DNA of 64,000 nucleotides from Nitrospinota bacterium (lineage in GTDB: Bacteria > UBA8248), in assembly GCA_030754595.1 (NCBI GenBank), contig JASLZZ010000084.1, forward strand, positions 1 through 64,000, read 5' to 3'. This document shows, piece by piece, positions 6,934 through 58,354 of the stretch. The notes under the pieces were generated by a model, which was not told the origin of the DNA, made no database searches, and saw nothing but the letters and a program-made list of their open reading frames with translations. Made by a program: the position numbers and the translations under genes. Numbering within the stretch: the first letter of the stretch is position 1; each line of letters starts with the position of its first letter.

Positions 6934-7016
6934 TGAAGGGGCGGCGAAAATTTGAATTCACATAGGGGAGTTTTTGCACCATTTGCACACCACATTTTGC
7001 AGAAAAGGAGACCAAA

Positions 7017-7322: not shown

Positions 7323-7365
7323 CGGCAATGGTAACATAAAAATAAAATAGTTACGAAATAGCTTA

Positions 7366-7764: not shown

Positions 7765-7825
7765 TTTTGGTGAATTGGCAGGTGTTTGCATTTTGGGAGT
7801 TGATGAATTTTGGGAGGGGAGCATT

Positions 7826-9279: not shown

Positions 9280-9348
9280 CTTTTCTCCGGGCGCCGCTGC
9301 CTTGTAGAATGCGTCTCCTCGCGCCCCGTTTTTTTTGAAGGAGAAGTA

Positions 9349-10233: not shown

Positions 10234-10312
10234 GGGTGATAAGGATGTTAATCCGACCCTAGCCGGTTGACGCGGTAACAATTTAACTTTTTGGAAATAT
10301 TAGGAGAATGAT

Positions 10313-11308: not shown

Positions 11309-11370
11309 CGGCTGATCTTCGAAAGCTTGAAAAAAAAGAAAGATTATTATCTTGAATTCCGCAGGGAATA

Positions 11371-11401
11371 AGGGCTCCGGCTGTTTGCCGGGGCTTTTTT
11401 T
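11371..11401 (+). terminator. Rho-independent terminator
   Basis: Stem GCTCCGGC/GCCGGGGC (one G-U pair), 5-nt loop, T-run, just after the Gfo gene. Confidence 0.7.
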
Positions 11402-11760
11402 CGTTTTGTTTGCCCCGATTGTTGATTGGGTTTGCCGGGAGGGGGGGGTGAATCTTGCGGTTTTGAATGGCCGTGGTCAGAGAGACAAGACAATTGTTAT
11501 TTTGCGGAAAATGCCGAGACAGCGGCAAGATATTTTTTGAAAGGAAATGGGTGAAAAAAAGTACGTAAGATCTTGAAAGACAACGAGTTACCTCATTTGC
11601 ACATCAGGCGGATGGATGAATTATTCATAAAAAAATCCACCATGGAGAATTTACCAAAATCTGTCACTATCCTAACAATCCTATGACAAATTAATCCGCT
11701 GAATCCCCAATATTTTCTTTTGTAATAGAGGATTCCCTACAGGGAATTCCTGGCCCATAT

Positions 11761-11952
11761 GGCCACGCCTCCGCCGTCATCGCTCTGGCGCATGACATGA
11801 AATTTGAGGTTATCGCCGAAGGTGTCGAAACCGAAGAGCAACTTCGCTTCCTCAATGAGCGCGGCTGCCACGCCATGCAGGGGTATTTCGTTTCAAAGCC
11901 GCTTCCCGCGAAGAGTTTCATGGAATGGCTCGCGGTGAATAACCCCAACTGA
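11761..11952 (+). pseudogene. C-terminal remnant of an EAL-domain phosphodiesterase
   Basis: Not in the ORF track; reads AVIALAHDMKFEVIAEGVETEEQLRFLNERGCHAMQGYFVSKPLPA; the upstream frame is closed by TAA near 11692. Confidence 0.85.
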
Positions 11953-23373: not shown

Positions 23374-23431
23374 CGAACCCTCTCCCAAGGCCGCCGGAGT
23401 TTCAGGGGCGGCTGAATTGAATTCCGTTGTT

Positions 23432-26192: not shown

Positions 26193-27377
26193 ATGGCACG
26201 AAAACCAAAAGCGCTCGCGAAGGCCACCTGGTTCACCTATTTTCCCGACGACTACCGCTGGTCGGCGGCGATCAGCATTTTATGTTCGATGGCCAACTGG
26301 GGCGGCGCCTCGATGGGCGAGATCGACCAGGTGGGCCGGCGGCTGGCGAAAAAAATCGGAGATGACAATCACTGGTTCCGCGAATGGGAGCGGATGGGAG
26401 ATCGCCTGAGGGACCTGGGGCTCGCGTCGGAGCGCAAGAAAAATAACCTGAGCGCCGCCGATTTCCACAAGCGTGCCTGCATGTATTACCAGCTGGGCGA
26501 GCGCTTCAGGACGCCCAAGGACAAGAAGGCGAAAGCCTGCTACCGGAAAGCGCTCGACTGTTTCGCGCGCTTCGCCCGCCTCACCGACCGCGCGCGGATC
26601 GAGCGGGTCGAAATTCCCTATGAAAATGGGAAAAAGCTCCCCGCCTATTTCGTCCATGCCCAGAACACGAAAAAGGCGAAACCGCCGATCGTCGTTTATT
26701 TCGACGGCTTTGACGTCTCGAAGGAGATTCAGTTTGTGTTCGGTGCCGAGGATCTGATTCGCCGCGGCATCAGCGTCCTTCTCGTGGACGCGCCCGGAAA
26801 CGGCGAGTCCATTAGATTCCGGAATCTCTACCTGCGCCACGATCACGAGGTCGCCGGCTCGGCGGCGCTGGACTACCTCGAAAAAAGAAAGGACGTGAAC
26901 GTGAGGCGGGCCGGGGTGATGGCTATCAGCCTGGGCGGCTACTACGCGCCCCGGAACGCCAGCATGGAAAAACGCTTCAAGGCCTGCATCGCCTGGGGCG
27001 CCCAGTGGGACTACCAGAAAATATGGGAGGATCGCATCGCGGCGGCCTACAAGACGGCGCTCTCCGTGCCGGGGCACCATCTCACCTGGATCTTCAACGT
27101 CAAGACGATGGACGAGGCCCTGGTAAAGCTCGAGGGGTTCAAGCTTGGCGGGGTGGTTGAGAAGATGCGGTGTCCCTTCCTGCTCGTGCACGGTGAGGAC
27201 GACCAGCAGATTTCAACGCGCGTGGCGCGTCAGCTATTTAACGCCGTCGGCTCAAAGGACAAGACCTTGAAAGTGTTCACGGGCAAGGAGGGCGGCGCGC
27301 AGCACTGTCAGATGGACAATGTGGCCCTCGCGGTGTCCTATATGTCGGATTGGCTCAAGGAGAAGCTCAAGGCCTAG
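26193..27377 (+). CDS. Alpha/beta hydrolase, tandem paralogue of the upstream gene
   Basis: FDGFDVSKE, AISLGGYYAPR, HGEDD, GGAQHCQ; colinear with 24936-26111. Confidence 0.88.
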   Translation: MARKPKALAKATWFTYFPDDYRWSAAISILCSMANWGGASMGEIDQVGRRLAKKIGDDNHWFREWERMGDRLRDLGLASERKKNNLSAADFHKRACMYYQLGERFRTPKDKKAKACYRKALDCFARFARLTDRARIERVEIPYENGKKLPAYFVHAQNTKKAKPPIVVYFDGFDVSKEIQFVFGAEDLIRRGISVLLVDAPGNGESIRFRNLYLRHDHEVAGSAALDYLEKRKDVNVRRAGVMAISLGGYYAPRNASMEKRFKACIAWGAQWDYQKIWEDRIAAAYKTALSVPGHHLTWIFNVKTMDEALVKLEGFKLGGVVEKMRCPFLLVHGEDDQQISTRVARQLFNAVGSKDKTLKVFTGKEGGAQHCQMDNVALAVSYMSDWLKEKLKA

Positions 27378-32969: not shown

Positions 32970-34148
32970 CTATCCCCCCGTCCCGAAGCGGTCCATCCAC
33001 CAGTCGGCGATCCAGTTGCCGCACATGGAGAGATTGTCGAAACAGCAGTGCTGGCTGCCGCCGTCCTCGACCCGGAAAATCTTGAGTTCTTTTTCGAGCG
33101 AGCCGCAGGCCGCGTAGAGGCGGTGGGCCATATCGACGGGGACAATGTTGTCGTCCTCGCCATGGGTAATGCAGATGGGCATCCGGATATTCTCGGCGAC
33201 GCCGTCGAGGGTGTAGGCCCGGCATTTTTCCATGGCGGCGTCCATGTCGGGCATGCCAAGGACCCAGGGAAGCTGCCAGATGGCCGAGGAGGAGACGGTG
33301 CCGCCGGCCTCAAGGACCTTGCGGCGGTGGAGCCAGACCTCGTGGTAGTCGAAGTGGGCGCCCCAGGTGAGGCAGGCGGCGTAGCGGTGCTCAAAGGCGG
33401 CGATGCGCGGGGCGTAGTAGCCGCCCATGCTCATCGCCATGACGCCGATGCGGGAGGAATCGACCCCCTCTCGGGCGTCGAGGTAATCGAAAGCCGCCGT
33501 ACCGGGGACCTCGTAATCCGGGCGGCTGGGGATTTTGCCGAGACGCAGGGTTTCACCCTGGCCGGGGCCGTCCACGCAGAGCACCCCGATGCCGCGCTCG
33601 CTGAGGAAGCGCCCTCCCCAAAGGACGGTGAATTCCTTCGAGGCGTCGAGGCCGTCGAAGAAGGCGATAGCCGGGTCGTTTCCGGTCGGGTTGAGGGGCG
33701 GTATCCACCAGGCGGGGAGCGGTCCCTCCTCGTAGGGGACTTCGACGCGCTCGAAGCCGGGAGTCTGAAGTTTCATCCCTTTTTCGTAGTGGGGGAGCAT
33801 CTCGCGGTAGGAGGCGGCTTTTCTCGGGTCCTCGGGGTGGACGAAGCGCTCGCAGGTGAAGCGGTAGATGGCGCTCCGGACGTAGGCCCCGGCGGCTGTG
33901 CGAGCGTGGCCCTTTTTCTCTTCGGCCTCGGCGAGGGCGAGGACCTTGTCGGCCATATCGATCCAGGCGTCGTGCCAGGCCTCTCCGTCGCCCACCTTGT
34001 CCTGGAGACGCTTTCCGATCTGATCCACCTCGTAGAAGGAGGTTCCCCCTAACGGGGCGAGGTTGATCTCACTGCACATGATCTGGGACCAGAGGTAGTG
34101 CTCGGGGAAGTATCTGAACCACGATCCTGCGATTTCCTCGGCGCTCAT
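32970..34148 (-). CDS. Alpha/beta hydrolase, FrsA/2,6-dihydroxypseudooxynicotine hydrolase-like
   Basis: FDGLDASKE, DGPGQGE, AMSMGGYYAPR, HGEDD, GGSQHC. Confidence 0.88.
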   Translation of the reverse strand: MSAEEIAGSWFRYFPEHYLWSQIMCSEINLAPLGGTSFYEVDQIGKRLQDKVGDGEAWHDAWIDMADKVLALAEAEEKKGHARTAAGAYVRSAIYRFTCERFVHPEDPRKAASYREMLPHYEKGMKLQTPGFERVEVPYEEGPLPAWWIPPLNPTGNDPAIAFFDGLDASKEFTVLWGGRFLSERGIGVLCVDGPGQGETLRLGKIPSRPDYEVPGTAAFDYLDAREGVDSSRIGVMAMSMGGYYAPRIAAFEHRYAACLTWGAHFDYHEVWLHRRKVLEAGGTVSSSAIWQLPWVLGMPDMDAAMEKCRAYTLDGVAENIRMPICITHGEDDNIVPVDMAHRLYAACGSLEKELKIFRVEDGGSQHCCFDNLSMCGNWIADWWMDRFGTGG

Positions 34149-37285: not shown

Positions 37286-38689
37286 CTAAATCTTCCAGGC
37301 GACCCCCGCGATTTGCCACCAGAAGAGCGTCGCCGTCAGGGTAGTGGCGAAGGCTATCGCGGTCATGAACATTCCGAACCGGAAGATCTCTCCCGCGGTT
37401 AAATGCCCCCGTTCGTAGACGGCGAGGCTGCTCGGACTCTGCGCCGGGTAGAACAGGATCGAATCTCCCATCAGAAGAACACCGAGGGCGCACACGAGCG
37501 GGTTCAGGCCGCCGCCCTGGCCGATCTCGATGGCAATCGGAATCGTGATGGCGAGGTAGCCGGTGATGTTGGGAACTAGAATCCGCACCGGAACGCTCAC
37601 CGCCAAAATAACGGCGAAGAGGAAATACGGCCGCTCGGCGATGGCCGGGGCCAGTTGCAGCAAAGTGAAGGCCAGCCATTTCGCAGCCCCGGTGTGTACC
37701 ATCGTCCAGCCGAGGGAAAGCGAGGCGCCCAGGAGAAAAAACGTCGCCCATGAAAACCTCGTCTCGAAGTCATTCCATTCGAGCACGCCGACGCCGGGGG
37801 CGAGGAGGAGCGCCCAGGCCATCATCGCCGGCACCGCGGGGTGAAGGCCGTGGATCGGGTCCGAGAGCCAGAGCGCCGAGGCCATGAGAATGATCAGGGC
37901 GGTTCGGATCTCGCCGCTTTTTAAGGGAGTTTTTTCGGCTTCAGGGAGGTCGAGCCGGACGCTCTCGCCGCGCATGTACCAGAGGTAAAGGAATAACGAG
38001 CCGATGAACAGCGTCAGATAGTAGGGAACGCCCAGAAGGAGAAACCACCGGCCCCATCCCATCCCCCCGATCAGCGAGGCGGCCACGATTGAGGTCATTC
38101 CGCCGGTGAGAAGGGCCGAGGAGGCGAGGCGGTTCAGAGAATGAAGCGCCATCATGACGGCGCGGGCGACGGGTGCCCCTTTCTTAACGCCGGTGAGCGT
38201 GAAGGTGCGGTCGAAAACTTCGGCGAGAATGAGAGACCGGCTGTTCGCCGAGGGCATGATCAGCGCCATCGGCGGAAACGAGACCACCATGAACCAGAAT
38301 AGCGGGCCGCTCTTTCCGCCCGAGAGGCGAAGAAAGAAACGGCCGATTCGCTCGGCGAGGCCGACGCGCTCGACGGCGATGGCGATGGTGAATACGCCGA
38401 TGAGGAAAAAAATCACGGGCTGTGAGAAACCGACAAGAGCCTCGCTCACCGACGAGGAGGCCCCCGTCAGAATCAGCAGCAGGATAACCAGCCCGCCGGT
38501 CAGCCCCGCCGGAAGGATTTCGCTTGTCCAGAGGACGACCGCCGCCGCCGCGACGAGCAGCGTCCGGTAGCCCGGCACCGAAAGACCGGTTGGCGGGGGA
38601 AGAAACAGACAGATGAAAAACGCTAAAAGAAGAAGTGGGGGCAGGCGGCCGAAAGCGCCCGCGCGGGCGGTGTGAACCGTTTGGCTCAT
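37286..38689 (-). CDS. DASS/SLC13-family anion transporter
   Basis: LWTSEILP, GLAERIG, MPSANSR, W.TFFLLGASLSLG; many TM segments; start taken at MSQTVH. Confidence 0.8.
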   Translation of the reverse strand: MSQTVHTARAGAFGRLPPLLLLAFFICLFLPPPTGLSVPGYRTLLVAAAAVVLWTSEILPAGLTGGLVILLLILTGASSSVSEALVGFSQPVIFFLIGVFTIAIAVERVGLAERIGRFFLRLSGGKSGPLFWFMVVSFPPMALIMPSANSRSLILAEVFDRTFTLTGVKKGAPVARAVMMALHSLNRLASSALLTGGMTSIVAASLIGGMGWGRWFLLLGVPYYLTLFIGSLFLYLWYMRGESVRLDLPEAEKTPLKSGEIRTALIILMASALWLSDPIHGLHPAVPAMMAWALLLAPGVGVLEWNDFETRFSWATFFLLGASLSLGWTMVHTGAAKWLAFTLLQLAPAIAERPYFLFAVILAVSVPVRILVPNITGYLAITIPIAIEIGQGGGLNPLVCALGVLLMGDSILFYPAQSPSSLAVYERGHLTAGEIFRFGMFMTAIAFATTLTATLFWWQIAGVAWKI

Positions 38690-38944
38690 TTCCGGTTCTC
38701 CGGTAAAAACATAATCTCGCCTCCTTTTCCCTCTGCCGGGGCTTCCGCCGAGGGAAATGGGTTTTGTCGATGAGTCTATTGGGGATTCTAACGCCTTCGA
38801 GCGGGCGAATCGATCCGGCCGCGTAAGAAGCTTCTCCGGAACGGTTGACACGGCGTGGGCGGGCTCGTTCATACTCGGGTTTCGAGTCTTGAGTCTCGGG
38901 CCTTTTCGGACCCGGCCCTATTTCCATGAATTCGGGGAGCGAAT

Positions 38945-39931
38945 ATGCCGTTCGAGCGCGACGAAAGTGACCTCGTCGAAGTGTATTACGAAAAAGGTTG
39001 GACGGACGGGCTTCCCGTCGTGCCCCCGACGCGAGAGAAGGTGGACGCCCTGCTTCGGGCGGGCGGTCTTCCCGCGGACGACGTCCTCGGAGAAATCGCA
39101 CCCAATTACGGCGCCGCCACCGGCGAGAAGGTCGCGATCAACGCTGTGATGGCGGGCTGCGCTCCCGAGCATATGCCCCTTGTCGTCTCGGGCGTCCGTA
39201 TCATGGCGGACAAGGAATTCAACCTTCACGCGATCGGGGGAATGACCGATTCCGCCTCGCCCCTCGTCATCGTCAACGGGCCCGCCCGAGAAGCGGGGGG
39301 CATTAACTGCGGAAACGGGGTTTTCGGGAACGGAACGCGCGGGAACGCCGTCGTCGGCCGAGCGTTGATGCTGGTGCTCGCCAACATCGGGGGTTCGCGG
39401 CCGGGCGGGATTTCCCGGACGATGTTCGGCTCGCCGGCAAGGTACTCCTACTGCATCGGCGAGAACGAGGAGGAAAGCCCCTGGGAGCCGCTTCACGTAG
39501 AGCGCGGGATCGAAGCTGGCCGGGGGGCGGTGACGATGCTCCCCTGCGAGTCGCCCCACGAGATTCGGATCGAGGGGGTGACTAAGGCGGAGGAGATGGC
39601 CGATATCCTGGGGCGCTCGATGTGCAGCGTCTGGTCGGCGAACAAGCATCATATTCACATCAGCGGGGTGATTCTGGCGCTGGGGCCGATGCATGCGGCC
39701 GTGTTCGGAGGCGCGGGCTGGAGCAAGGCTGCTACGCGGAACGTTATTTTTCAGTCTGCGATTATGCCCGACGAGGAAAACGGCTCCCCTTTGCGAAAGT
39801 TTTTGTCGCCCGAGGCTATTACGATAATCGTGGCGGGCGGCGCAGGTGGAATTTACAGCATGCTCTTGCCCGGCATCGCAGACTACATGGGGACGAACAT
39901 GGTCACCCGGCCGGTCGAGCCCGCGGGGTAG
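38945..39931 (+). CDS. Conserved uncharacterised protein of the type found beside UGSC-family genes
   Basis: GWTDGLPVVPPT, EKVAINAVMAGC, RGNAVVGRAL, ENEEESPWEPLHVERG; 55 nt upstream of the UGSC gene; the association is from recall. Confidence 0.75.
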   Translation: MPFERDESDLVEVYYEKGWTDGLPVVPPTREKVDALLRAGGLPADDVLGEIAPNYGAATGEKVAINAVMAGCAPEHMPLVVSGVRIMADKEFNLHAIGGMTDSASPLVIVNGPAREAGGINCGNGVFGNGTRGNAVVGRALMLVLANIGGSRPGGISRTMFGSPARYSYCIGENEEESPWEPLHVERGIEAGRGAVTMLPCESPHEIRIEGVTKAEEMADILGRSMCSVWSANKHHIHISGVILALGPMHAAVFGGAGWSKAATRNVIFQSAIMPDEENGSPLRKFLSPEAITIIVAGGAGGIYSMLLPGIADYMGTNMVTRPVEPAG

Positions 39932-39986
39932 ACAGAAGTCCCCGGAGCGGCAGGCAGGCGCGGATTTTTTTCTGAAGGAGAGGATT

Positions 39987-40517
39987 ATGCCCGAGCTATT
40001 CGATCCGACCGCGAAGCCGAAGCGCCGCGTCGAGAACCTGGCGGTGCGCCCCGGCAGCCTCGCGGGAAAGGTGATTGGCCTTCTGGACATCGGCAAGCCG
40101 AAGGGGGATTGGTTTCTCGAGGCGGTGGGGGAGCTTCTCAGGGAGAACTACGGGGCCCGCGAGACGGTCTACTACCGCAAACCGACGCACGCCAAGCCCG
40201 CGCCCGGTGAGTTGGCCGAGGAGATCGCCCAGCGGTGCGACGCCGTTGTCGAGGCGCTCGCCTACTGAGGAAGCTGCACGACGTGCAGTTTGCACGATGC
40301 GGCCTTTTTCGAGCGCTGGGGAGTGCCGGCGGCGCCGGTGGTGACGCGGGAGTTTCTTCAGGCGGGGGAATTTCAGGCGAAGGCCCTCTTCGGCGGAGAC
40401 TACCCGATCGTTTTCACCCCTCATCCGGTCGCCCACATGGAAAAGGAAGAGTTCTCCCGGCTCGCGCAGGATGCGCTCGAGGGGATCGCCGGCCGGCTCA
40501 TGTCCGCCTCCTCATAA
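39987..40517 (+). CDS. UGSC-family selenoprotein (Sec at codon 94, TGA 40266-40268)
   Basis: AAGGAGAGG RBS; frame continues through TGA as EALAY-U-GSCTTCSLHD, joining two track ORFs into 176 aa. Confidence 0.9.
40273..40303 (+). promoter_or_regulatory. Candidate bacterial SECIS element
   Basis: Lower stem GCUGCA/UGCGGC, internal loop, upper stem CGUGCA/UGCACG, apical loop GUU starting at +20 after UGA. Confidence 0.7.
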
Positions 40518-40544
40518 CCTCGACTTAATGAACTGGAGCCCGGT

Positions 40545-42287
40545 TTGAGCAACTCCGCTTTCCAGGTCCGTAAATGCGATGTGCTCATCCTGGGATCGGG
40601 GGGCGCCGGGCTGCTCGCGGCGCTGGCGGCCTACGAGGCCGACCCCGCCCTCGATATCCTCATCGCCGTCAAGGGCCTGTTCGGGAAAAGTGGGTGCACC
40701 CGCATGGTCCAGGGCGGCTACAACGTCGCCCTCTCCGATAGCGATTCGGTCGAAAACCACTTCATGGACACGGTGCGGGCGGGTGCCTGGCTCAACGACC
40801 AGGACCTCGCATGGGAACTCGTCAGCCGCGCTCCTGGCTGCATCCGCAGGCTCGAGACCGTCTGCGGCGCCTTCTTCGACCGGAGTCCGGACGGCGAGAT
40901 CCACCAGAAGGCCTTCGCCGGCCAGAGTTTCGACCGCACCGTCCACAAAGGCGACCTCACCGGCATCGAACTCACGAACCGCGCCTCCGAGCAGATAATC
41001 CGCCGAGGGATTCCCGTTCTCGAGGAGCGCCGCGCAATCGCTCTCTTGCCCGATTCGGGTGCGGCCGGCCGGGTCGCCGGGTCGATGCTCCTCGATATCC
41101 GGAGCGGTGAGTTCACCGCCGTCAACGCGAAATGCACCCTTCTCGCGACCGGCGGAGGCCCCACATTCTACAAATACTCGGCCTGCGCGCAGGAGCTCGC
41201 CACCGACGGGATGGCGATGGCCTGGGAGGCGGGCGCGGACCTTTGCGACATGGAGATGGTCCAGTTCCATCCGACGGGAATTCTCACGGGCGAGGGACTC
41301 CAGATCACCGGAACCCTGCTGGAGGAGGGGCTGCGCGGCGCGGGTGGCCATCTGCTCAACGGCCGTGGTGAGCGCTACATGGAGCGCTACGACCCCGAGC
41401 GGATGGAGCGCTCAACGCGCGACCTGGTGGCTCGCGCGGGCTACACCGAGATCAAGGAGGGCCGCGGCACCGAGAACGGCGGCGTTTTCATCGACGTAAG
41501 CCATCTCGGGGCGGATTTCGTCCGAAAGAATTTCAGGGGGATGGTGGATCGATGCGCCGATTTGGGCTTCGATCTCGCGGGAGCGCCCGTCGAGGTCTCC
41601 CCGACGGCGCACTACATGATGGGTGGCGCGAAGATAGACACCGGCTGCCGGACGAGTCTCCCAGGCCTTTTCGCGGCGGGCGAGGACGCCGGCGGCACCC
41701 ATGGGGCGAATCGCCTCGGTGGAAACGGGGTAGCGAACTCCACCGTGTTCGGCGAGGTGGCCGGGCGAGAGATGGCGGCCGAGGCCGGCGGCGCTCCGTT
41801 CGAGAGTTTTGATCGCGGCTCGGCTGAAGCGTCGGTTGAGGAAGCGTTGGCAGCCCTCGGCGACGGGGACTCTCCTTATCCCGTCCGCGCCTCGCTCAAG
41901 GAGCTGATGTGGAAAAAAATCGGTCTTCGGCGCAACGGGGCCGACCTGGCTGCGGGCCTCGAGGAAATCGCCTCTCTCGGGGAGCGGGCGGCCCGGGCCC
42001 GCGCCGGTGGAGGCCGGGCCTACAACATCGCCTGGCAGAATGTCCTTGACGTTTGCAACCAGATCGCCGTGGCGGAGTTGATCGCACGGAGCGCCATCGA
42101 GCGCGACGAGAGTCGGGGCAGCCACTACCGGGACGACATTCCCGAGCAAAAACAGGGCGCGCTCTATAACGTTTTCATTTCGAAGCGGGGCGAGAAGGCC
42201 GCCGTCGAACGCCGTCCGGTCCGCTTCACCCGTGTCAAGCCGGGCGAGGAACTCGCCGCCGCCGAGCCCGTCAATTTTATGGATTGA
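40545..42287 (+). CDS. Succinate dehydrogenase/fumarate reductase-like flavoprotein (divergent)
   Basis: GSGGAG, GKSGCTRMVQGG, LATGG, QFHPTG, RD, AHYMMGG, HGANRLGGN, ESRGSH; TTG start with GGAG RBS. Confidence 0.9.
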   Translation: MSNSAFQVRKCDVLILGSGGAGLLAALAAYEADPALDILIAVKGLFGKSGCTRMVQGGYNVALSDSDSVENHFMDTVRAGAWLNDQDLAWELVSRAPGCIRRLETVCGAFFDRSPDGEIHQKAFAGQSFDRTVHKGDLTGIELTNRASEQIIRRGIPVLEERRAIALLPDSGAAGRVAGSMLLDIRSGEFTAVNAKCTLLATGGGPTFYKYSACAQELATDGMAMAWEAGADLCDMEMVQFHPTGILTGEGLQITGTLLEEGLRGAGGHLLNGRGERYMERYDPERMERSTRDLVARAGYTEIKEGRGTENGGVFIDVSHLGADFVRKNFRGMVDRCADLGFDLAGAPVEVSPTAHYMMGGAKIDTGCRTSLPGLFAAGEDAGGTHGANRLGGNGVANSTVFGEVAGREMAAEAGGAPFESFDRGSAEASVEEALAALGDGDSPYPVRASLKELMWKKIGLRRNGADLAAGLEEIASLGERAARARAGGGRAYNIAWQNVLDVCNQIAVAELIARSAIERDESRGSHYRDDIPEQKQGALYNVFISKRGEKAAVERRPVRFTRVKPGEELAAAEPVNFMD

Positions 42288-42318
42288 TGACTGAGAAATC
42301 AGGCATGAGAAAGGAGAT

Positions 42319-42666
42319 GTGATGGCTTCCCTGTCCGGCCCTCCGGCCCGGCCCCCGTTTTGGAATCTTTCGGCGTGGCGGGCCATGTATCCGGGCATGT
42401 GGGCGTGGGTGATTCAGCGCCTCTCGGCTGTGGTGCTGCTCGTTATTTTTCCTTTCCATGTCCTGAATCCCTACAATAAGTGGCTGCGGATTGCCGTGCT
42501 GGCGCTCGTGATTCTTCACGGAATGCACGGCCTCAAGGTGATTTTCACCGATTTCGGGTTTCCCGCGCGGCATCAACGCAAGTTGCTTTGGGTCTTGACG
42601 GCGCTAGGAGCCGCCGCGTTTTTCTGGCTCGCCTATCTCCGAAAGGCCTTTTGGGGATTTTTTTGA
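42319..42666 (+). CDS. Sdh/Frd-type small membrane anchor (cytochrome b-like)
   Basis: WAWVIQRLSA...FH, LHGMHGLKVIFTDF; three hydrophobic helices. Confidence 0.8.
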   Translation: MMASLSGPPARPPFWNLSAWRAMYPGMWAWVIQRLSAVVLLVIFPFHVLNPYNKWLRIAVLALVILHGMHGLKVIFTDFGFPARHQRKLLWVLTALGAAAFFWLAYLRKAFWGFF

Positions 42667-43424
42667 TGGTGGGTGGCGGCGTCATTTTCCGCGTTCGGCG
42701 CGGCGGCGAGGCGGGCGATCCCCAAGAGCGATACCAGACCTACGCCATCACGCCGCGCCCGAGGATGACCGTCCTCGACGTGCTGACCTCCATCCAGAGC
42801 GAACAGGACGCCTCCCTTGTGTTTCGCTATTCCTGCCGGGTGGGAATGTGCGGAACCTGCGCCCTCCGGGTGAACGGGCGGCCCCGCTGGGCCTGCCGGA
42901 CGCTGATCACGGAGCTGGGCGAAAGCGTAACCCTCGAGCCACTGGCGAATTTCCCCCTCATCCGCGATCTGGCCGTGGACATGACGCCCTTCAGCGACGG
43001 CCTGAAACGCGTGCGGGCCTGGGCCGAGCCCACCGAGGCCGCCGCCTCCGCTCCGGCGCGGATCCTTCCCAGCAGTAGAGAGCGGGTCCGGATCGATCCC
43101 CATATCGAGTGCATCACCTGCGGTATCTGCTATTCTGCCTGCTCCATGCTGGGACACGATCCGGCTTTTCTGGGACCCGCGGCGCTCAACCGGGCCTATA
43201 CCCTGGTGTGTGACAGCCGAGACGCGGCGAGCGCGGAGCGGTTGGCCGAGGTGTCCGGGGAGCAGGGCATCTGGCGGTGCCACAGCCAGTTCAACTGCAC
43301 CGAGGCCTGCCCAAAAGGAATCAGTCCGGCCACCGCCATTCAGGGCCTCAAGCGACAGGCGGCGGCGAGCGGGGCGAAATCTTTTGTCTCGTCCATCATC
43401 GGGGGCCGCGCCCCCGGAGCATAA
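42666..43424 (+). CDS. Sdh/Frd iron-sulfur subunit
   Basis: SCRVGMCGTC..C, CITCGICYSAC, CHSQFNCTEACP; TGATG overlap with the anchor gene. Confidence 0.92.
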   Translation: MVGGGVIFRVRRGGEAGDPQERYQTYAITPRPRMTVLDVLTSIQSEQDASLVFRYSCRVGMCGTCALRVNGRPRWACRTLITELGESVTLEPLANFPLIRDLAVDMTPFSDGLKRVRAWAEPTEAAASAPARILPSSRERVRIDPHIECITCGICYSACSMLGHDPAFLGPAALNRAYTLVCDSRDAASAERLAEVSGEQGIWRCHSQFNCTEACPKGISPATAIQGLKRQAAASGAKSFVSSIIGGRAPGA

Positions 43425-43470
43425 TAATAATTATCTCTCCTACAGGAGAGATTTTTAGGAGGATCAGGCG

Positions 43471-44421
43471 ATGCCTACCGCAACCGGCGCCTTCATCGGC
43501 GCCGACCTTACCCGGGAAGTCGCTTTCGAGCTCAACCGACGCGCTGCGATTCACATTCCGGGCGATGTCCGCCAGAGCGTTCGTGGCATGGCCGAGCGCG
43601 AGACCGAGCGGCTGTCGAAATTCGTCCTGCTCGAAATCGTGAACAACTACGAGGTGGCGGACGAGGACCTCCGTCCCATGTGCGCCGACACCGGGCTTCC
43701 GCGCTTTTACGCCAAGGTTGGGAACGAGGCACGCCTTGAGGGCGGTTTCGTCGCTTTCGAGAGGAGCATTCGCGAGGCGACTGCCCGCGCGACGACTGAA
43801 ATTCCCCTTCGCCCGAACCGCGTTCATCCGATCACGCGGTACGATTACAACAACAACGTCGGCATCCACGCGCCGAGCGTGGACTACTCCTGGGAGCCCG
43901 GGGCCGACTGGGTGGAAATGACCGCCTTCCACAAGGGGGGCCTGTTTGGCGGCGACTACCGGATGCTCTTCCCCGGGGACGGAATCGACGGAATCCGCCG
44001 ATTCTACCTCGATGTCATCAGCGAGTTTTTCAAGCGCGGGCTTTCCTGCCAGCCGGCCATCGTCGGCATCGGCATCGGCGGGACGAAGGATACCTGCGTG
44101 AAACTGGCAAAGGAGGCGGCCTGCCTGCGCGTGGTGGGCGACCGGAATCCCGATCCACAGATCGCCGATCTCGAGGACGAGCTCGTCGAACTGGGCAAGC
44201 GATCCACCCTCGGTGCGATGGGCTTCAAGGGCGAAGGCGCGGTGATGGACGCCCACATCGAGGTCGCCTACACTCACACGGGCGGGATGCCCGTTTCCAT
44301 TCACCACCAATGTTTCGCCCTGCGGCGGAGCACCGCGCGGATCCACCCGGACGGGGAGGTCGAGTACCGCGAGGACCCGCGGTGGTTCACCGATTACTAC
44401 CGCCGCGATTCGGTGAGTTGA
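43471..44421 (+). CDS. Class I Fe-S hydro-lyase (fumarate/tartrate type) alpha subunit
   Basis: PMCADTG, PLRPN, CQP..VGIGIGG, LGAMGFKG, QCFA.R. Confidence 0.88.
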   Translation: MPTATGAFIGADLTREVAFELNRRAAIHIPGDVRQSVRGMAERETERLSKFVLLEIVNNYEVADEDLRPMCADTGLPRFYAKVGNEARLEGGFVAFERSIREATARATTEIPLRPNRVHPITRYDYNNNVGIHAPSVDYSWEPGADWVEMTAFHKGGLFGGDYRMLFPGDGIDGIRRFYLDVISEFFKRGLSCQPAIVGIGIGGTKDTCVKLAKEAACLRVVGDRNPDPQIADLEDELVELGKRSTLGAMGFKGEGAVMDAHIEVAYTHTGGMPVSIHHQCFALRRSTARIHPDGEVEYREDPRWFTDYYRRDSVS

Positions 44422-44438
44422 CCGGGGATTTTTTGGCC

Positions 44439-45128
44439 ATGAGCGAAAAGAACACATCGGACCTCCTGATGGACGAGCACCTCCTCGAGACTTCCGTTTC
44501 GCGGGAGGCGCTGGATAAGCTCAGGATAGGCGACATCGTGCGTCTGAACGGCGTGATTTTCACGGGCCGAATCGGGCTTTATAAAAAACTCTTTGACGAG
44601 GAGGCCGAGCCGCCCGTCGATATCGCCGCACTCACGAACGTTACTTTTCATTGCTCCCCCGCGGTGGGCGAAAAAGCGCCCGGCGAGTGGGAGGTCTCAG
44701 CCGTTACGGCGACGGCGAGTTTTCGATTCGAGAAGCATCTGCCTCTGCTCATGGAGCGGCACGGCGTCCGCTGTGTGATTGGCAAAGGGGGAATGTCCCC
44801 CGAGTTCTACCGGGACCATTTCAAGCGCCTCGGCGGGGTGTTCTTGAATACGGTGGGGTACGGCATCGGTGCGCAGTACGGCAGGGGCGTCCAGAGGGTC
44901 GAGGCGGTGCACTGGCTCAAGGAGCTGGGCATTGCCCAGGCGATGTGGGTGCTCCGGGTGAAAAACTTCGGGCCATTCCTCGTCGAGTGCGATACGGAAG
45001 GAAACAGCCTCTACGAGATGGCGATGAAGGAAACCAACGAGAATCTCAAGGGGCTTTACGCCGATCTCCCGCTGCCCACCCTCAAGCGAATGGGCGAGGT
45101 GCATAACCCCGAGGACGAAGTGTTCTGA
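44439..45128 (+). CDS. Class I Fe-S hydro-lyase beta subunit
   Basis: LRIGDIVRLNG.IFTGR, IGKGGM, WLKELGIAQAMW, FGPFLV..DTEGNSLY. Confidence 0.88.
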   Translation: MSEKNTSDLLMDEHLLETSVSREALDKLRIGDIVRLNGVIFTGRIGLYKKLFDEEAEPPVDIAALTNVTFHCSPAVGEKAPGEWEVSAVTATASFRFEKHLPLLMERHGVRCVIGKGGMSPEFYRDHFKRLGGVFLNTVGYGIGAQYGRGVQRVEAVHWLKELGIAQAMWVLRVKNFGPFLVECDTEGNSLYEMAMKETNENLKGLYADLPLPTLKRMGEVHNPEDEVF

Positions 45129-45143
45129 TCCGGGTCGCTCTCA

Positions 45144-46430
45144 ATGGGAAAAATTCGAATGAACCAAAATCAGGTTATACGGGCCAACCGCGCCCGCATG
45201 AAAAAAGAGTTCGACGCGCAGTCGAGGATCGGCCGCCACGGCAAAACCGGGTTGGCGAGAGTCGCCCTCACCCCCGACTACAACCGGGTACGGGAACTCG
45301 TTCGGCGATGGATGGAGTCCGCCGGGCTCAAGACGCGGGTGGACGCCGTGGGGAATCTCATCGGCAGGAAAGAGGGCCGGGTGAAGGGGTTTCCCGCTGT
45401 GATGGCCGGCTCACATCTGGACTCGCAGAATCCGGGAGGGCGCTTCGACGGCCCCGCCGGGGTGCTGTCCGCCCTTGAGGCCGTCCGACGAATCGGCGAG
45501 ACGGGCGCCGCCCACGACCATCCACTGGAGGTCGTCGCCTTCGTCGGAGAAGAATCCACCTGCGGGCTCGTGACGTTCGGGAGCAGTGTCATGGCCGGGC
45601 AGGTGGGAGCCGCTGCGATGAAGGCGGCGGTTCACTCACCGACCGGCAAGTCGGTCTACGAGGCGGTCCGGCTGGCGGGGGGGAATCCTTCGCGGGTGAA
45701 AAGCTGCCGCCTCCCCCGGGATTCGCTGAAGGCGTTTATCGAGCTTCACATCGAGCAGGGACCCGTTCTCGAGGCGGCGGGGGTGCCCGTCGGTGTCGTC
45801 GACACCATCGTCGGTGCGCTCAGGGGGGATATTCACTTCGAGGGCCAGACGGCTCACTCGGGCGGACAGCCCATGCCCTACCGGCGCGACGCGGCCATGG
45901 CCGCCGCGGATTTCATGTTGGAGATGGAGGGCGCGGCGCGGCGGGCGCCCGAGAGCCAACGGATGACGCTGACGTTCGGGGTGATATCGGCCCGGCCGGG
46001 ATGGGTTTCGATTGTGCCGGGCGGAGCGAGCATTTCATTCGATCTGAGAAGCAAAAGCGATAAGGCGTCGGCGGCGATGCTCGGGCGGATGAGGAAAGCG
46101 CTCGGGCGAATTCAAAAAAGACGCGAGGTGAGGGGGCAGCTTAAGCTTAGTGTGAAGTACGCGGCCTGTCCGGCCTCTCGGGGAATCCGCCGGGCGATTG
46201 AGCGGGCGGCCGGTGAGACGGGCCACCCTTCGATGACGCTATCGAGCGGGGGAATTCACGACGCCTGCCGGATCGCCGCCCTGTGTCCGATCGGGATGGT
46301 TTTTGTACCCTCGGTGAAGGGGCTTTCGCATACTCCGGAAGAGTACACGCGGTTTCAAGATATCGCGGTCGGGGCCGAGGTGTTGACCTCGGCGATGTTG
46401 CGGCTGGCCGGACGCCGCGTGAAGGCGTAA
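45144..46430 (+). CDS. Zn-dependent hydrolase, N-carbamoylase/allantoate amidohydrolase family (M20)
   Basis: GSHLDS, GRFDG..G, EE, ELHIEQGPVLE, HDA, GLSHTPEE. Confidence 0.9.
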   Translation: MGKIRMNQNQVIRANRARMKKEFDAQSRIGRHGKTGLARVALTPDYNRVRELVRRWMESAGLKTRVDAVGNLIGRKEGRVKGFPAVMAGSHLDSQNPGGRFDGPAGVLSALEAVRRIGETGAAHDHPLEVVAFVGEESTCGLVTFGSSVMAGQVGAAAMKAAVHSPTGKSVYEAVRLAGGNPSRVKSCRLPRDSLKAFIELHIEQGPVLEAAGVPVGVVDTIVGALRGDIHFEGQTAHSGGQPMPYRRDAAMAAADFMLEMEGAARRAPESQRMTLTFGVISARPGWVSIVPGGASISFDLRSKSDKASAAMLGRMRKALGRIQKRREVRGQLKLSVKYAACPASRGIRRAIERAAGETGHPSMTLSSGGIHDACRIAALCPIGMVFVPSVKGLSHTPEEYTRFQDIAVGAEVLTSAMLRLAGRRVKA

Positions 46431-46448
46431 GGGCCGGCGCCTCTTTTC

Positions 46449-55094: not shown

Positions 55095-56669
55095 GTGAAT
55101 TTCACGGGCTGGATGTACGACATCGCGCGGGAGCAATCGCCGGGCGAGGACTATCTGCTCGAATTGATCGGGCGCTCGGCCGGGGCCGGCTATAACGCGG
55201 TGGGCCTTTACCTCGAGCACCGCTTCGCCTACCCCTCGGCCCCCTGGGCGGCAGGGCCGGGCTGCCTGACGCCGGAGACGGCGGGGCGGCTGTCGAAGGC
55301 GGCGCGGGAGTTCGGGGTCCGCCTCATCCCCTTTTTAAATACGCTGGGCCACATGGAGGGATTCATCCGGGCCGAGGGGGGCCAGTGGCTTGCCGAGGCG
55401 CCGGGGCGGGGGGTTTTGCAGATTTGCCCGAGCCGGGAGGAGTGCCGCGAGTTCGCCTCCGGCCTCGTGGCCGACGCGGCGGCGGCCTTTGACGACGAAT
55501 GGATCCACCTGGGCGGGGACGAGACGCATCAACTGGGCGAGTGTCCCCGCTGCCGGGAGCGGGCGGCGGAGATCGGCGAGGTGGGCCTTTATGCCGAGTT
55601 CTATGGGAGACTCTGCCGCGAGGCGATCGCCCTCGGGCGGCGGCCCTGCCTCTGGGGTGACATGCTCGCCAAGTATCCCGATGCGCTCGGCGGGATTCCC
55701 CCCGAGACGGTGATTTTCGACTGGAACTACGAGGAGGCTCCCTCGGAGACGAGCGCGATGTTCCGCGAGCGGGGCTTTGATGTGGTGCTCTCCTCGGCGG
55801 TGCGCTCCTACGACGCGAACTGGTGTTTCCTGGACGATACCCGCCGGGTGATCGACTCCCACCGGGAGGAGGCCCAAAGGGCCGGCGCGGACCAGTCCGG
55901 CACAGAGCAATCCGGCGCCCGCAGGGCCGGGCAGCTTGTTTGCGCCTGGGAGTTTTTCGGGTTCTCCCCGTTCGAGTCGGTCCTGCCGGTGGTGATGGCG
56001 GCGGGCCGGCGGATTTCGGCGGGTGAAGAGTGGGGGGCCGCGCTCGAGGCCGAGGGCGGCGAGGCGTTCGCCCGCGCGGTCGAGATTCTTGGGAGTGAAA
56101 TCCCCCGGCTCTCCCCGTTTCTCGCGCCGGGGGGGTGGCGCTCGCTCCGCGAGCCGCTCATCAAGCAGGGCGACCCTTTTCGCCTCTGGCGGGCCTGGCG
56201 GGAGGACGCCTGCAGTAGAGTGGGCGATAGGGTCCTCGAGGCGCTGGAGGAGGCGGGCGATCTTATCGGGCCGGAGAGCCCCGGGCCGGAAAACCCGCTC
56301 CGCTTCCCGGTGGATTTTCACCGCGCCTGTCTGGAGTGGGTGCGCCTGGTGGAGCGGGCGGCGGAGCGATACGCCGCCGGAAATGTGGAGAGCGCGGCGG
56401 CGCTATTGGGCGAGGGCGCGCGCGTCCTCGTCCGGCTCAGGCCGGGGCTCGAGAGGATCGCGGCGGGCGGGGGCTCCGGGGCCGACCCCCTCCGGCTGGA
56501 CGGCCTCCTCGAGGCGATCGAGCGCGCCCAGGGCAACCTCCGCGCCGCCCCTGAAACCGGCGGCGGCAGGCCCGCCTTCGAGATACTCACCCAGGCGGGA
56601 TACATCCCCGGCGATCAGGCGGGCTGGCCGGCCGAGGGGACGGCCTCGGGCTGGCGGGAGCGCGGCTAG
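55095..56669 (+). CDS. GH20-like glycoside hydrolase (beta-N-acetylhexosaminidase-like)
   Basis: DIAR, IPFLNTLGH, catalytic HLGGDE, WGDM, DWNY. Confidence 0.75.
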   Translation: MNFTGWMYDIAREQSPGEDYLLELIGRSAGAGYNAVGLYLEHRFAYPSAPWAAGPGCLTPETAGRLSKAAREFGVRLIPFLNTLGHMEGFIRAEGGQWLAEAPGRGVLQICPSREECREFASGLVADAAAAFDDEWIHLGGDETHQLGECPRCRERAAEIGEVGLYAEFYGRLCREAIALGRRPCLWGDMLAKYPDALGGIPPETVIFDWNYEEAPSETSAMFRERGFDVVLSSAVRSYDANWCFLDDTRRVIDSHREEAQRAGADQSGTEQSGARRAGQLVCAWEFFGFSPFESVLPVVMAAGRRISAGEEWGAALEAEGGEAFARAVEILGSEIPRLSPFLAPGGWRSLREPLIKQGDPFRLWRAWREDACSRVGDRVLEALEEAGDLIGPESPGPENPLRFPVDFHRACLEWVRLVERAAERYAAGNVESAAALLGEGARVLVRLRPGLERIAAGGGSGADPLRLDGLLEAIERAQGNLRAAPETGGGRPAFEILTQAGYIPGDQAGWPAEGTASGWRERG

Positions 56670-58354
56670 CCCCGCTGTTTCACGGCGTCCTTGCGCCGGG
56701 GCTCGGGGTAGATGTCGGCGTCGATGATCACGTCCACCAGAACGGGCTTGTTCTGCTTCAACGCTTCCGAGTAGACATCCTCCAGCTCGCTCGGGTCCTC
56801 GACCCGGTAGCCGACGGCCCCGAAGGCGCGCGCGTAGTCGTCGAAGCGGGGGTTGCCGATGGCGTCGCCGATGTAGCGCTCGTTATAGAAGTGGTTCTGG
56901 TAGGCCCGCTCGGAGCCCAGGTTGTGGTTGTTGAGGATGATGGTCACGGTGTTGAGCTTCTCGCGGACGGCGGTTTCGAGCTCGGCCCCGTTGAAGAGGA
57001 AGGCGCCGTCCCCGCTGATGGTGACGACGGGGCGGTCTGGGCAGGCGAGCTTCGCCCCCAGCCCGAGGGGGTAGCCGATACCGATGGCGGCCAGGTCCTG
57101 CGGGGCGAGAAAGCTGCGAGGCCGGTCGAACTGGTGGTACTCGTAGACGTAGCCCGCCGCGCTCCCGGCGTCGAGCGTGATAATGGCGTTCTGGGGAATC
57201 ACCTTGGCGAGGGCCATCTGCGCCCGGCGCGGGTCGATGGGCTTGGCGCCGTAGGTCAGGCCTTTTTCACGGTGGGCGCTCTGTGCCGCCATGACCTCAT
57301 CCGCGCGGCGTTTCCAATCCGAACCAGACCCTTCCGCAGCGGAGCTATTGTCTCCCGTGAGGGCGAGCAGCCCTTGCAGTACGAGTCCCGAATCGCCGAT
57401 GAGGCCGACCTCGGCCGGGTAGTGGCGCTCGACGCTTTTCTGATCGTGGGCCGCATGGATCAGTTTCGTCCCCTCGCCGAGGAAAGTGTCCCGCAGGAAG
57501 GTGGTGCTGTGGGCGAGCCGGGTCCCCACGGCCAGGACGACGTCGGCCTCCTTGAAGAGCGCGCCCGCCTCGGGGATGGTGCCGCGCCCGATCGAACCCA
57601 GGAAAAGCGGGTGGGCGGTCGGAACCACGTCGTCCCTGCCCGTCGAGGTCATGATCGGCGCGCCGAGGGCCTCGGCCAGCGCGATGAGATCGTCGGTCGC
57701 CTCGGCCCAGATGACTCCGCCCCCCGCGAGGATGAGGGGCCGCGCCGCTTTTTTTAGCAGCTCGGCCGCCTCGGCGAGCCTCGCCGGGTCGGCCCCGGCC
57801 CGGGGGAGATCGTCTGAGCCGCGGCTGTTCAGCCGGGGGACATCCACATCCTCGAGCATGATGTCGCGCGGGATGTCGAGGTGAACCGGCCCCGGAACGC
57901 CCGAGATTGCCGTGTGATAGGCCTCGCGGACGAGATTGGCCGTCTGCCCGGCCTTCCGCACCTGGATGGTTCGCTTGACGACGGGCGCGAACATCGCCAG
58001 GTGATCGATTTCCTGGGTGGACTCGTAGAACATGTCCTTCGTCATCGGCGCGCCCGTGATGACGACGACCGGGCTCTGCGCCAGCTTGGCGTGGGCCACC
58101 CCGGTGATGAGGTTGGTGGCGCCCGGCCCGTTTGTCGCCATGCAGACGCCGGGGGATCCGGTAAGGCGGCCGTGGGCGCTCGCCATCAGCGCTCCGCTCT
58201 GCTCGTGGCGCACGGTGACGAACCCCAGGTCCTCCCGGCCGTACATGCCGTCGAGAATTTCGACCAGGCACGAACCCGCCATCCCGATGACGTTTCGCAC
58301 CCCCAGTTGAGCAAGCGACTCGGCTACCGCGTATCCCGCAGACATCTTGGCCAT
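56666..58354 (-). CDS. ThDP-dependent enzyme, acetolactate-synthase-like (possibly Xsc-related)
   Basis: GMAGS, VRHEQ, NGPGATN, GPVHLDIPRD, SGDGAF...NN...GSE. Confidence 0.88.
   Translation of the reverse strand: MAKMSAGYAVAESLAQLGVRNVIGMAGSCLVEILDGMYGREDLGFVTVRHEQSGALMASAHGRLTGSPGVCMATNGPGATNLITGVAHAKLAQSPVVVITGAPMTKDMFYESTQEIDHLAMFAPVVKRTIQVRKAGQTANLVREAYHTAISGVPGPVHLDIPRDIMLEDVDVPRLNSRGSDDLPRAGADPARLAEAAELLKKAARPLILAGGGVIWAEATDDLIALAEALGAPIMTSTGRDDVVPTAHPLFLGSIGRGTIPEAGALFKEADVVLAVGTRLAHSTTFLRDTFLGEGTKLIHAAHDQKSVERHYPAEVGLIGDSGLVLQGLLALTGDNSSAAEGSGSDWKRRADEVMAAQSAHREKGLTYGAKPIDPRRAQMALAKVIPQNAIITLDAGSAAGYVYEYHQFDRPRSFLAPQDLAAIGIGYPLGLGAKLACPDRPVVTISGDGAFLFNGAELETAVREKLNTVTIILNNHNLGSERAYQNHFYNERYIGDAIGNPRFDDYARAFGAVGYRVEDPSELEDVYSEALKQNKPVLVDVIIDADIYPEPRRKDAVKQRG

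Follow-up and report, generated by a model that had tools for sequence, protein, structure and literature searches.

A complex-II-like core, a UGSC selenoprotein pair and genus-specific genes in one row of a marine Nitrospinota genome

Introduction

The closest described relatives of the genes discussed here are the complex II enzymes (SdhCDAB and FrdABCD of Escherichia coli and Sdh1 of Mycobacterium smegmatis), the thiol:fumarate reductase TfrAB of methanogens, the class I iron–sulfur (Fe–S) hydro-lyases, such as fumarase and L(+)-tartrate dehydratase, and the UGSC family of selenoproteins. The active-site threonine of complex II flavoproteins has an established role, and the roles of substrate-site residues are known for the fumarase of Leishmania. 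We analysed a locus in which relatives of these systems stand in one row, in a Nitrospinota bacterium (NCBI GenBank assembly GCA_030754595.1, contig JASLZZ010000084.1). The window, as we call the whole stretch of DNA that was analysed, comprises 64,000 nucleotides (positions 1 to 64,000 of the forward strand of this contig), and the locus lies at positions 37286 to 46430.

The UGSC family is still an orphan. In their 2008 ocean survey, Zhang and Gladyshev reported UGSC fused to a conserved domain called “Unknown_1”, and the accessible part of that article gives no function (PMC2398784); a 2026 review, in the portion available, continues to list the function of UGSC as uncharacterised (PMC13188914).

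We consider it about an even chance that the locus is a juxtaposition, in one marine genus, of three units with separate histories. The first is the core, defined here as the five genes SdhA–anchor–SdhB–hydro-lyase alpha–hydro-lyase beta (40545–45128), which would form an accessory module for a succinate-like substrate; the second is a probable redox pair made up of a UGSC selenoprotein and an unnamed partner protein; and the third consists of two additions, an M20 amidase and a DASS-family anion carrier. We read these as three units because the core, the pair and the M20 and DASS genes show separate distributions.

Genes of the locus

The genes in question are the following.

37286–38872, minus strand: DASS-family anion transporter, divergent from the row of eight genes (Pfam Na_sulph_symp 128 bits, CitMHS 89 bits)
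38945–39931, plus strand: unnamed protein of 328 amino acids (aa), the UGSC partner, without a Pfam or NCBIfam family
39987–40517, plus strand: UGSC-family selenoprotein (PF24696, NF041046), with a selenocysteine (Sec) codon TGA at 40266–40268
40545–42287, plus strand: SdhA/FrdA/TfrA-like flavoprotein, with a TTG start and GGAG 6 nucleotides (nt) upstream (PF00890 243 bits, PF02910 81 bits)
42319–42666, plus strand: single small membrane anchor, 115 aa, three hydrophobic helices (weak Sdh_cyt match, 32.8 bits)
42666–43424, plus strand: SdhB-type iron–sulfur subunit (TIGR00384 209.5 bits, cut-off 88)
43471–44421, plus strand: class I Fe–S hydro-lyase alpha subunit of a divergent “type 2” (PF05681 220 bits)
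44439–45128, plus strand: class I hydro-lyase beta subunit of the same divergent “type 2” (PF05683 85.5 bits)
45144–46430, plus strand: M20 amidase of the hydantoinase/carbamoylase family (TIGR01879 348 bits, cut-off 204)

A first-pass annotation of the window had listed these nine genes, and every item of that list proved correct in kind and position, including the divergent DASS transporter. Its description of eight genes in one orientation, separated by no more than 55 nt, also agrees with our measurements, which range from −1 to 55 nt (55, 27, 31, −1, 46, 17 and 15 nt along the row); the start ATG of SdhB shares one base with the stop codon of the anchor gene. The G+C content of the window is about 63%. 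A terminator-like hairpin lies right at the end of the M20 gene (46423–46442). The sigma-70 promoter model that was used is uninformative for this organism and returned 0 sites between 37000 and 47500, while Rfam, at its gathering threshold, recognised no family anywhere in the window, and therefore no curated selenocysteine insertion sequence (SECIS) or riboswitch. A separate hairpin of 10 pairs followed by a T run is present within the 3′-terminal part of the anchor gene (42635–42658), just ahead of the overlapping SdhB start, and could be an attenuator or a product of chance.

Separate distributions of the core, the pair and the additions

Orthologues of the flavoprotein (E-value of 1e-100 or better) occur in 34 of the 51 genomes of the phylum, in 33 of 41 within the window's family and in 0 of 10 outside it. 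Around 18 of the family loci, from seven genera, about 15 kb of DNA was fetched, bearing in mind that kin within a family are not independent. The order SdhA–anchor–SdhB–hydro-lyase alpha–hydro-lyase beta is found at all 18, one copy being fragmented, and 15 of the 18 have neither the pair nor the amidase nor the DASS gene beside the core. The fragmented copy belongs to the family's one 8-Mb genome (L127, G029:C24, 6576–11207), where the flavoprotein and the hydro-lyase beta subunit match in pieces only, and this core is either broken or poorly assembled.

The partner, UGSC, DASS, M20, M24 and SBP5 genes adjoin the core at just 3 of the 18 family loci, all of them in g1, the genus to which the window itself belongs. 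There, the order SBP5–M24–DASS, divergent from partner–UGSC–core–M20, is kept at each of the three loci with enough flanking DNA, at 73–98% protein identity; in a fourth g1 genome the flavoprotein is present on a contig that is too short for neighbours.

Further afield, the picture is the same. From the wider clade of the flavoprotein, we fetched 80 metagenome loci with a set of clade patterns, the cysteine motif of the flavoprotein among them, and UGSC, the partner, M20 and DASS were absent from all 80. We also fetched 79 partner loci from many phyla, including Binatia, Methylomirabilota, Chloroflexota, Acidimicrobiales, Proteobacteria and one haloarchaeon, and within their approximately 10 kb none gave an SdhA, SdhB, hydro-lyase, M20 or DASS match, only two partial FAD hits of 46 bits appearing. 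The open reading frames (ORFs) of fetched loci were called by a crude rule combining the longest ORF with third-position G+C (GC3).

It had been proposed that the locus encodes one conserved route in which a Sec/Cys module serves the oxidoreductase. The distributions do not support this proposal and speak against an obligatory link: the core stands alone at 15 of 18 family loci and at all 80 metagenome loci, and the pair stands alone at all 79 of its own. Nor is the selenoprotein tied to the flavoprotein by occurrence, given that UGSC genes are present in 41 of 41 genomes of the window's family, in two to nine copies each, as compared with 33 of 41 for the flavoprotein; in complete genomes of the family these UGSC genes are separated from the core by tens of kilobases or more, and the genome studied here has two further sites with the pair. 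The suggested co-occurrence of the UGSC pair with the flavoprotein thus holds for g1 (three of three loci, and the window) and fails at every other locus surveyed.

Active sites and accessory status of the core

In alignments with E. coli SdhA (1nek_A) and FrdA (2b76_A) and M. smegmatis Sdh1 (7d6v_A), the flavoprotein of the window has Cys51 at the position of the histidine that links flavin adenine dinucleotide (FAD) and Glu260 in place of the active-site threonine, so that its loop reads L-E-E-G where the others have V-T-E-G. The catalytic and binding residues His242, Arg292, His356 and Arg390 are retained. All six positions are kept in the 16 of 16 clade members recovered by homology search, down to 55% identity. 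The protein holds FAD_binding_2 and Succ_DH_flav_C domains, and its best NCBIfam model is that of TfrA (NF004900), which it matches over model positions 4–540 of 546 with 553 bits against a cut-off of 718. It falls below every complex II equivalog cut-off (TIGR01812, for instance, gives 420 against 567). A literature search on TfrA and covalent FAD found nothing.

SdhB has the cysteine patterns of the 2Fe-2S, 4Fe-4S and 3Fe-4S clusters, with CxxCxxCxxxC and CxxxxxCxxxCP read from its translation. The anchor is conserved at the 18 family loci, and its His47, His67, His70 and His85 are invariant in 19 aligned rows.

Neither hydro-lyase subunit reaches the cut-off of a curated equivalog. The alpha subunit scores 209.5 against 276 for the fumarase model NF004885 and 153 against 365 for TtdA (NF006084), and the beta subunit scores 117.8 against 269 for NF004708 and 115.7 against 264 for NF006082, on the TtdB side. 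Compared with the two chains of the fumarase structure 7xky, the alpha subunit keeps the three cluster cysteines and reads CADTG for CQDTG (chain A), while the beta subunit reads TGRI for TARD and VTATASFRF for GPTTSARM (chain B). The motifs CADTG, TGRI and VTATASFRF are conserved at 17 of the 18 family loci, L127 being the broken one, and VTATASFRF is strictly conserved throughout the type-2 group apart from L203, where one Ala has become Gly, and the broken copy of L127.

The core is an accessory set of enzymes and not the housekeeping one. We say so because the genome has a second, histidine-type SdhAB, FumC and a second class I fumarase, and because the active sites of the core are altered. 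Of the 10 full-length FAD_binding_2 matches in the genome, just two adjoin an SdhB gene, and the second of these, on contig C114 beside its own SdhB, has the canonical FAD-linking histidine in the sequence R-R-A-H-S. Fumarase activity is likewise encoded elsewhere, by a class II FumC on C91 (777 bits) and by a class I enzyme on C78 (350 bits, compared with 220 for the window's copy). The view that the locus is not the housekeeping tricarboxylic acid (TCA) cycle module, which had been put forward from the sequence of the window, is therefore borne out, and a check for a separate canonical succinate dehydrogenase and fumarase, suggested at the same time, found both, the locus being neither the only succinate dehydrogenase nor the only fumarase of the genome. 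Six more full-length FAD_binding_2 flavoproteins (on C96, C107, C46, C109, C137 and C58) have neither the fumarate-reductase signature of QFHPTG plus His/Arg nor an adjoining SdhB.

A D-isomer 2-hydroxyacid dehydrogenase gene often follows the core in other genera. Flanks were scanned at four loci from other genera, and three had this gene downstream: in L120 and L122 it is the next gene after the core, and in L125 a methylase gene has been inserted before it; counted by cluster, it is present at 7 of the 18 family loci, and a copy of 61% identity is found on C56 of the genome studied here. The insertion in L125 (2901–4151, G035), which lies between the hydro-lyase beta and dehydrogenase genes, encodes a DNA methylase with an HNH nuclease domain.

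Candidate substrates of the core

On our reading, the core encodes a membrane-bound, quinone-linked, complex-II-like enzyme and a [4Fe-4S] hydro-lyase, which would perform an accessory version of the chemistry that leads from succinate to fumarate to malate. A substrate of the form X-CH2-CH2-COO- would be desaturated to the enoate, which would be hydrated to the 2-hydroxy acid, or the sequence would run in reverse. In most of the family, the D-2-hydroxyacid dehydrogenase would add a step to the 2-oxo acid. In g1, the pair would have been placed directly upstream of the core, and the M20 amidase and DASS carrier, which may deliver or trim a substrate, would have been added. The gene content, the separate distributions, the residue changes and the housekeeping paralogues are observed; we infer the class of substrate, the direction of the reaction, any physical contact within the pair and any cooperation of the three units.

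It is more likely that X is a group other than a carboxylate, and the leading candidate would be a sulfonate, as in 3-sulfopropanoate, because of the genes that surround the wider clade. This clade is a large, multi-phylum group of complex-II look-alikes that accompany a fumarase look-alike. Among its 80 metagenome loci, hydro-lyase genes are present at 62 and SdhB at 39. Two types of hydro-lyase accompany it, one with the canonical fumarase motifs and the other being the type of the window, which was found at 13 of the 80. The neighbours include TauE at 16, SuyB-like GD_AH proteins at 10, Ldh_2 at 15 and TctC at 20 of the 80 loci, and at least one of TauE, SuyB-like or Ldh_2 occurs at 26. For example, locus L205, which has the type-2 hydro-lyase, reads TctC–TctA–TauE–SdhB–anchor–SdhA–hydro-lyase alpha–hydro-lyase beta. 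These 26 loci give partial support to 3-sulfopropanoate as a lead for the wider clade and hint that it acts on a succinate analogue of this kind.

In the literature that we searched, no description of the clade's genes was found, and the sole relevant text, in the part of it that is available, is an article of 2024 citing a thesis for the conversion of 3-sulfopropanoate to sulfoacrylate and sulfolactate in Roseovarius (PMC11489063). Should 3-sulfopropanoate or similar analogues of succinate prove to be its substrates, the clade would close a gap in the turnover of organosulfur compounds in the sea, and the window's family would represent a second variety of it with a different hydratase.

The genome's own sulfonate genes are not decisive, because none adjoins the locus: four GD_AH and 11 TauE genes are present at other places. 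The sulfoacetaldehyde acetyltransferase Xsc has no match above its cut-off anywhere in the genome, the best score being 362 against 676; it belongs to a thiamine diphosphate (ThDP) enzyme at 56666–58354 on the minus strand of the window.

The partner and UGSC pair

When TGA is read as Sec, the UGSC gene is an open frame for a protein of 176 residues with the motif A-Y-U-G-S-C-T-T-C-S, and it exceeds the cut-offs of both family models (158.2 bits against 25 for PF24696 and 136.4 against 125 for NF041046). The in-frame TGA is not an error, since it is kept in the genome's two other UGSC genes (one TGA each, at the same position), in 64 of the 65 UGSC genes near partner loci elsewhere and in independently assembled DNA. 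DNA contigs from four runs of four studies have identical letters across the Sec codon, and they also bridge the junction between UGSC and the SdhA-like gene. The genome encodes Sec machinery as well, namely, selB (364 bits, cut-off 242) and a tRNA-SeC with the anticodon TCA on C102. The only cysteine form (C-G-S-C) among the 65 genes is that of a Natrialba asiatica contig (a haloarchaeon; L071, 5713–6357), where it lies upstream of its partner gene.

A hairpin of 6 bp (CGUGCA-GUU-UGCACG; 40279–40297 in the window), a candidate SECIS-type element, begins 14 nt past the UGA and recurs in homologues. Its energy is only modestly better than that of shuffles, with z = −0.78 for the window and, against mononucleotide shuffles, a median z of −1.16 for the homologues, 34 of 65 of which fall below −1. 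The hairpin is built from codons of the conserved T-C-S-x-H-D, so RNA structure and protein motif may constrain each other.

The partner protein (38945–39931) matches no Pfam or NCBIfam model, yet it is far from rare: of 8000 candidates scored, 6813 were significant homologues, and all those that bear a name are called “hypothetical”. An alignment of 16 sequences shows an invariant D-G-L-P-V-V-x-P (DGLPVVPPT in the window) and invariant Cys72 and Cys170. Its AlphaFold model has a predicted local distance difference test (pLDDT) score of 81.7, and searches with this model in Foldseek and VIA-align revealed no clear solved relative. We rejected a class I fumarase alpha fold, for which Foldseek gave 7xky_A at an E-value of 6.4e-5 but with a template modelling (TM) score of 0.29–0.33 and a root-mean-square deviation of 16 Å; a “Toblerone” cyclic amide hydrolase, whose Foldseek match is weaker still; and a chorismate-mutase-like fold, the best VIA-align match, with a Z of 6.5 over 95 residues only. 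A sequence search of the PDB returned nothing, the best E-value, 0.078, belonging to an unrelated protein of 100 aa. No likeness of the partner to GrdE or PrdA, the proproteins of glycine and D-proline reductases, was found by sequence or among the fold-search matches listed, both kinds of search covering the partner only. The ESM Atlas places the partner in unnamed clusters, which we take as leads only: one automatic name is “thiol-disulfide oxidoreductase family”, and in one cluster 16% of the members have PF24696. In addition, a 468-aa relative of the partner (P0018) has at its N terminus a ferredoxin:thioredoxin reductase catalytic-chain domain (PF02943) with CPC...CPC...CHC motifs; judging from this arrangement of domains, the fusion hints at a disulfide reductase that may feed the partner.

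The partner and UGSC form a near-universal pair. Among the 79 partner loci, UGSC lies within 1 kb at 59, downstream in 48 and upstream in 11, and of the 20 loci that have no UGSC within this distance (among them L004, L006–L009 and L015), at least five are short of DNA on one side. In L009, the neighbours of the partner are mreB and aconitase-family genes of the LeuC/LeuD-like kind, and a TPR gene lies downstream. The movement of the pair is independent of the genes around it. No conserved third gene was found beside it at these loci, the top neighbour clusters, a family III coenzyme A (CoA)-transferase and a short-chain dehydrogenase, each being present at only 9 of the 79.

The other copies in the genome studied here keep equally varied company. 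On C109, a second pair stands alongside TPR, family III CoA-transferase, FAA-hydrolase and aminotransferase genes, and C50 has a lone partner copy. A third site on C116 combines three tandem partner paralogues with UGSC, an enoyl-CoA hydratase gene and, on the opposite strand, a molybdenum (Mo) hydroxylase, as follows.

4683–11899 of C116 (L002, G000:C116), minus strand: pair region
8670–9737, 9741–10763 and 10805–11899, minus strand: partner paralogues
about 5511–6014: Pfam match of UGSC, past whose true stop, in the same frame, comes the enoyl-CoA hydratase gene
about 6300–8290, opposite strand: Pfam domains of a xanthine-dehydrogenase-type Mo-cofactor gene

The partner and UGSC make up a widespread two-protein unit, most likely a selenol/thiol redox enzyme with a substrate of its own. 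Because the neighbourhoods of the pair vary widely across the 79 partner loci, the expectation that this locus would give the UGSC family a general metabolic context is not upheld; what the locus adds is a clean case of the pair joined into an operon.

Additions in genus g1 and other genes of the window

The DASS gene passes its Pfam cut-off (Na_sulph_symp, 128 bits against 27) and falls short of TIGR00785 (133 against 198.6). Its orthologues, of 78–94% identity, were found only in the three g1 loci, and they align from residue 1, 79 or 96. The true start is probably further in, since orthologues align from residues 79–96, and the divergent spacer between DASS and the partner gene is at least 72 nt, or about 255 nt if Met62 is the start. 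The M20 protein can be assigned to its family only, with 373 bits against 399 for NF006771 and 369 against 520 for ErtE (NF058540). It is downstream of the core solely in g1 loci and seems to have replaced another gene at the end of the operon, because the 2-hydroxyacid dehydrogenase lies downstream in three of four scanned loci and a 61%-identical copy of it is found elsewhere in the genome.

The remainder of the window is rich in catabolic genes. It includes a GD_AH gene of the SuyB/altronate-dehydratase type (12061–13275, minus strand) and, in addition to the ThDP enzyme mentioned above, two more at 1612–3405 and 21733–23388, making three in all, each on the minus strand. Four paralogous serine hydrolases of the FrsA-like/S9 type lie at 5770–6933, 24936–26111 and 26193–27377 (plus strand) and at 32970–34148 (minus strand), and around them are amidase, M20, M24, peptide-type ABC transporter and acyl-CoA dehydrogenase genes.

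Alternative readings

Several points weigh against three separate units and a core substrate other than fumarate. In g1, at least, the 27-nt gap between UGSC and the SdhA-like gene, the terminator-free gaps and an order kept at 78–84% protein identity argue for joint transcription of the units, and no terminator-like site was found in any gap from the partner gene through the SdhA-like gene. Physical contact between the partner and UGSC is presumed. As for the substrate, TauE, SuyB-like and Ldh_2 genes are all missing from the approximately 7 kb around the core at each of the 18 family loci, so the sulfonate reading is without local support in the window's own family. In the 80 metagenome loci, the Cys motif is not countable because the search patterns include it, and the labels of the neighbours come from crude ORF calls that were clustered, one representative per cluster being scanned with Pfam. 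Finally, plain fumarate is a possible substrate, since every His and Arg that binds the dicarboxylate is kept and the FAD-linking His is missing. The loss of this histidine is typical of fumarate-reducing enzymes too.

This last point opens the alternative that fares best, namely, that the core combines a fumarase with a quinol:fumarate reductase whose FAD is bound non-covalently, both working in fumarate respiration or in a reductive branch that leads from oxaloacetate through malate and fumarate to succinate, next to neighbours that are incidental. In its favour, besides the four His and Arg positions, are an SdhB with full cluster motifs, a nearest curated model, TfrA, that is itself fumarate-reducing, the fact that fumarase and fumarate reductase catalyse consecutive steps, the presence of the core in 33 of 41 family genomes and the many metagenome relatives whose hydro-lyase has canonical motifs. 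However, such a core would bring the genome to three fumarases and two complex II enzymes, and the flavoprotein and both hydro-lyase subunits remain below their equivalog cut-offs. The change from Thr to Glu is clade-wide, and three residues of the fumarase motifs are gone from the hydro-lyase, namely, Gln in CQDTG, Asp in RD and the second Thr in TTS. Moreover, sulfite-exporter or sulfolactate-type genes accompany 26 of the 80 relatives, and the dehydrogenase downstream of the core belongs to the D-2-hydroxyacid family and not to that of the usual L-malate dehydrogenases. On balance, we regard the fumarate explanation as rather unlikely, albeit one to be taken seriously. An identity with the reverse-TCA fumarate reductase of Nitrospina gracilis was considered and rejected: the enzymes in the available text of PMC3578206 are of types B and E, neither of which has this architecture, and the proteins closest to those of the window come under varying source names (Nitrospinaceae, Nitrospinota and Tectomicrobia).

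A second alternative keeps the locus together as a single pathway in g1, in which the DASS carrier would import the substrate, the M20 enzyme would remove an N-carbamoyl or amide group, the core would desaturate or reduce and then hydrate the product, and the UGSC pair would give electrons or remove a substituent. The shared orientation, the gaps of −1 to 55 nt and the placement of a terminator-like site only after M20 all fit this proposal, as do the full order kept at three of three g1 loci (73–98% protein identity) and the independent contigs that span the junction from UGSC to SdhA. Against this, the association is limited to one genus, being missing from 15 of 18 family, 80 of 80 metagenome and 79 of 79 partner loci, and a gene order kept among close relatives is weak evidence for a common function. 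Two other sites of the same genome also hold the pair, in unrelated company, and M20 seems to have taken a place that the 2-hydroxyacid dehydrogenase holds in three of four scanned loci. We therefore think a single pathway unlikely. Least of all do we expect, and consider very improbable, that in g1 the pair performs the first chemical step of the operon, a selenium-dependent reductive cleavage like that of glycine or proline reductase, by which an amino acid freed by M20 from a DASS-imported N-carbamoyl precursor (N-carbamoyl-aspartate or a sulfonated analogue) would lose its amino or thio group before the core oxidised and hydrated the resulting acid, even though a first class of substrates would thereby be assigned to the orphan UGSC family.

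Comparison with described systems

Under the reading that we prefer, three units side by side, each unit can be set against its nearest described counterpart. The core shares with complex II (E. coli SdhCDAB, 1nek, and FrdABCD, 1kf6; M. smegmatis Sdh1, 7d6v, being the best solved match) its domains, an SdhB with three clusters, an anchor gene and the His and Arg residues. It differs in having one anchor of 115 aa in place of two subunits or a five-helix cytochrome b, in its gene order A–anchor–B within one operon with a hydro-lyase, and in the exchange of Cys for His and Glu for Thr. In comparison with the thiol:fumarate reductase TfrAB of methanogens (NF004900/NF004898), TfrA is the top curated model for the flavoprotein, although below its cut-off, whereas SdhB here matches only positions 15–221 of the 488 of the TfrB model and has no thiol-oxidising C-terminal half; an anchor, moreover, is present here.

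The hydro-lyase has both Pfam domains of the class I fumarase of Methanocaldococcus jannaschii (7xky) and retains its three cluster cysteines and GKGG, the arginine in LRPN and the histidine in HT, together with the first threonine of the TTS motif and the arginine that comes next; unlike 7xky, it is without the glutamine of CQDTG, the aspartate of RD and the threonine at the second position of TTS. With L(+)-tartrate dehydratase TtdAB it has the Pfam domains in common, although the equivalog cut-offs are not reached here. The UGSC protein, in contrast, is the same protein as the known family (PF24696, NF041046), with Sec in the U-G-S-C motif and both cut-offs passed, and its only unusual feature is its location directly upstream of an operon that resembles that of succinate dehydrogenase.

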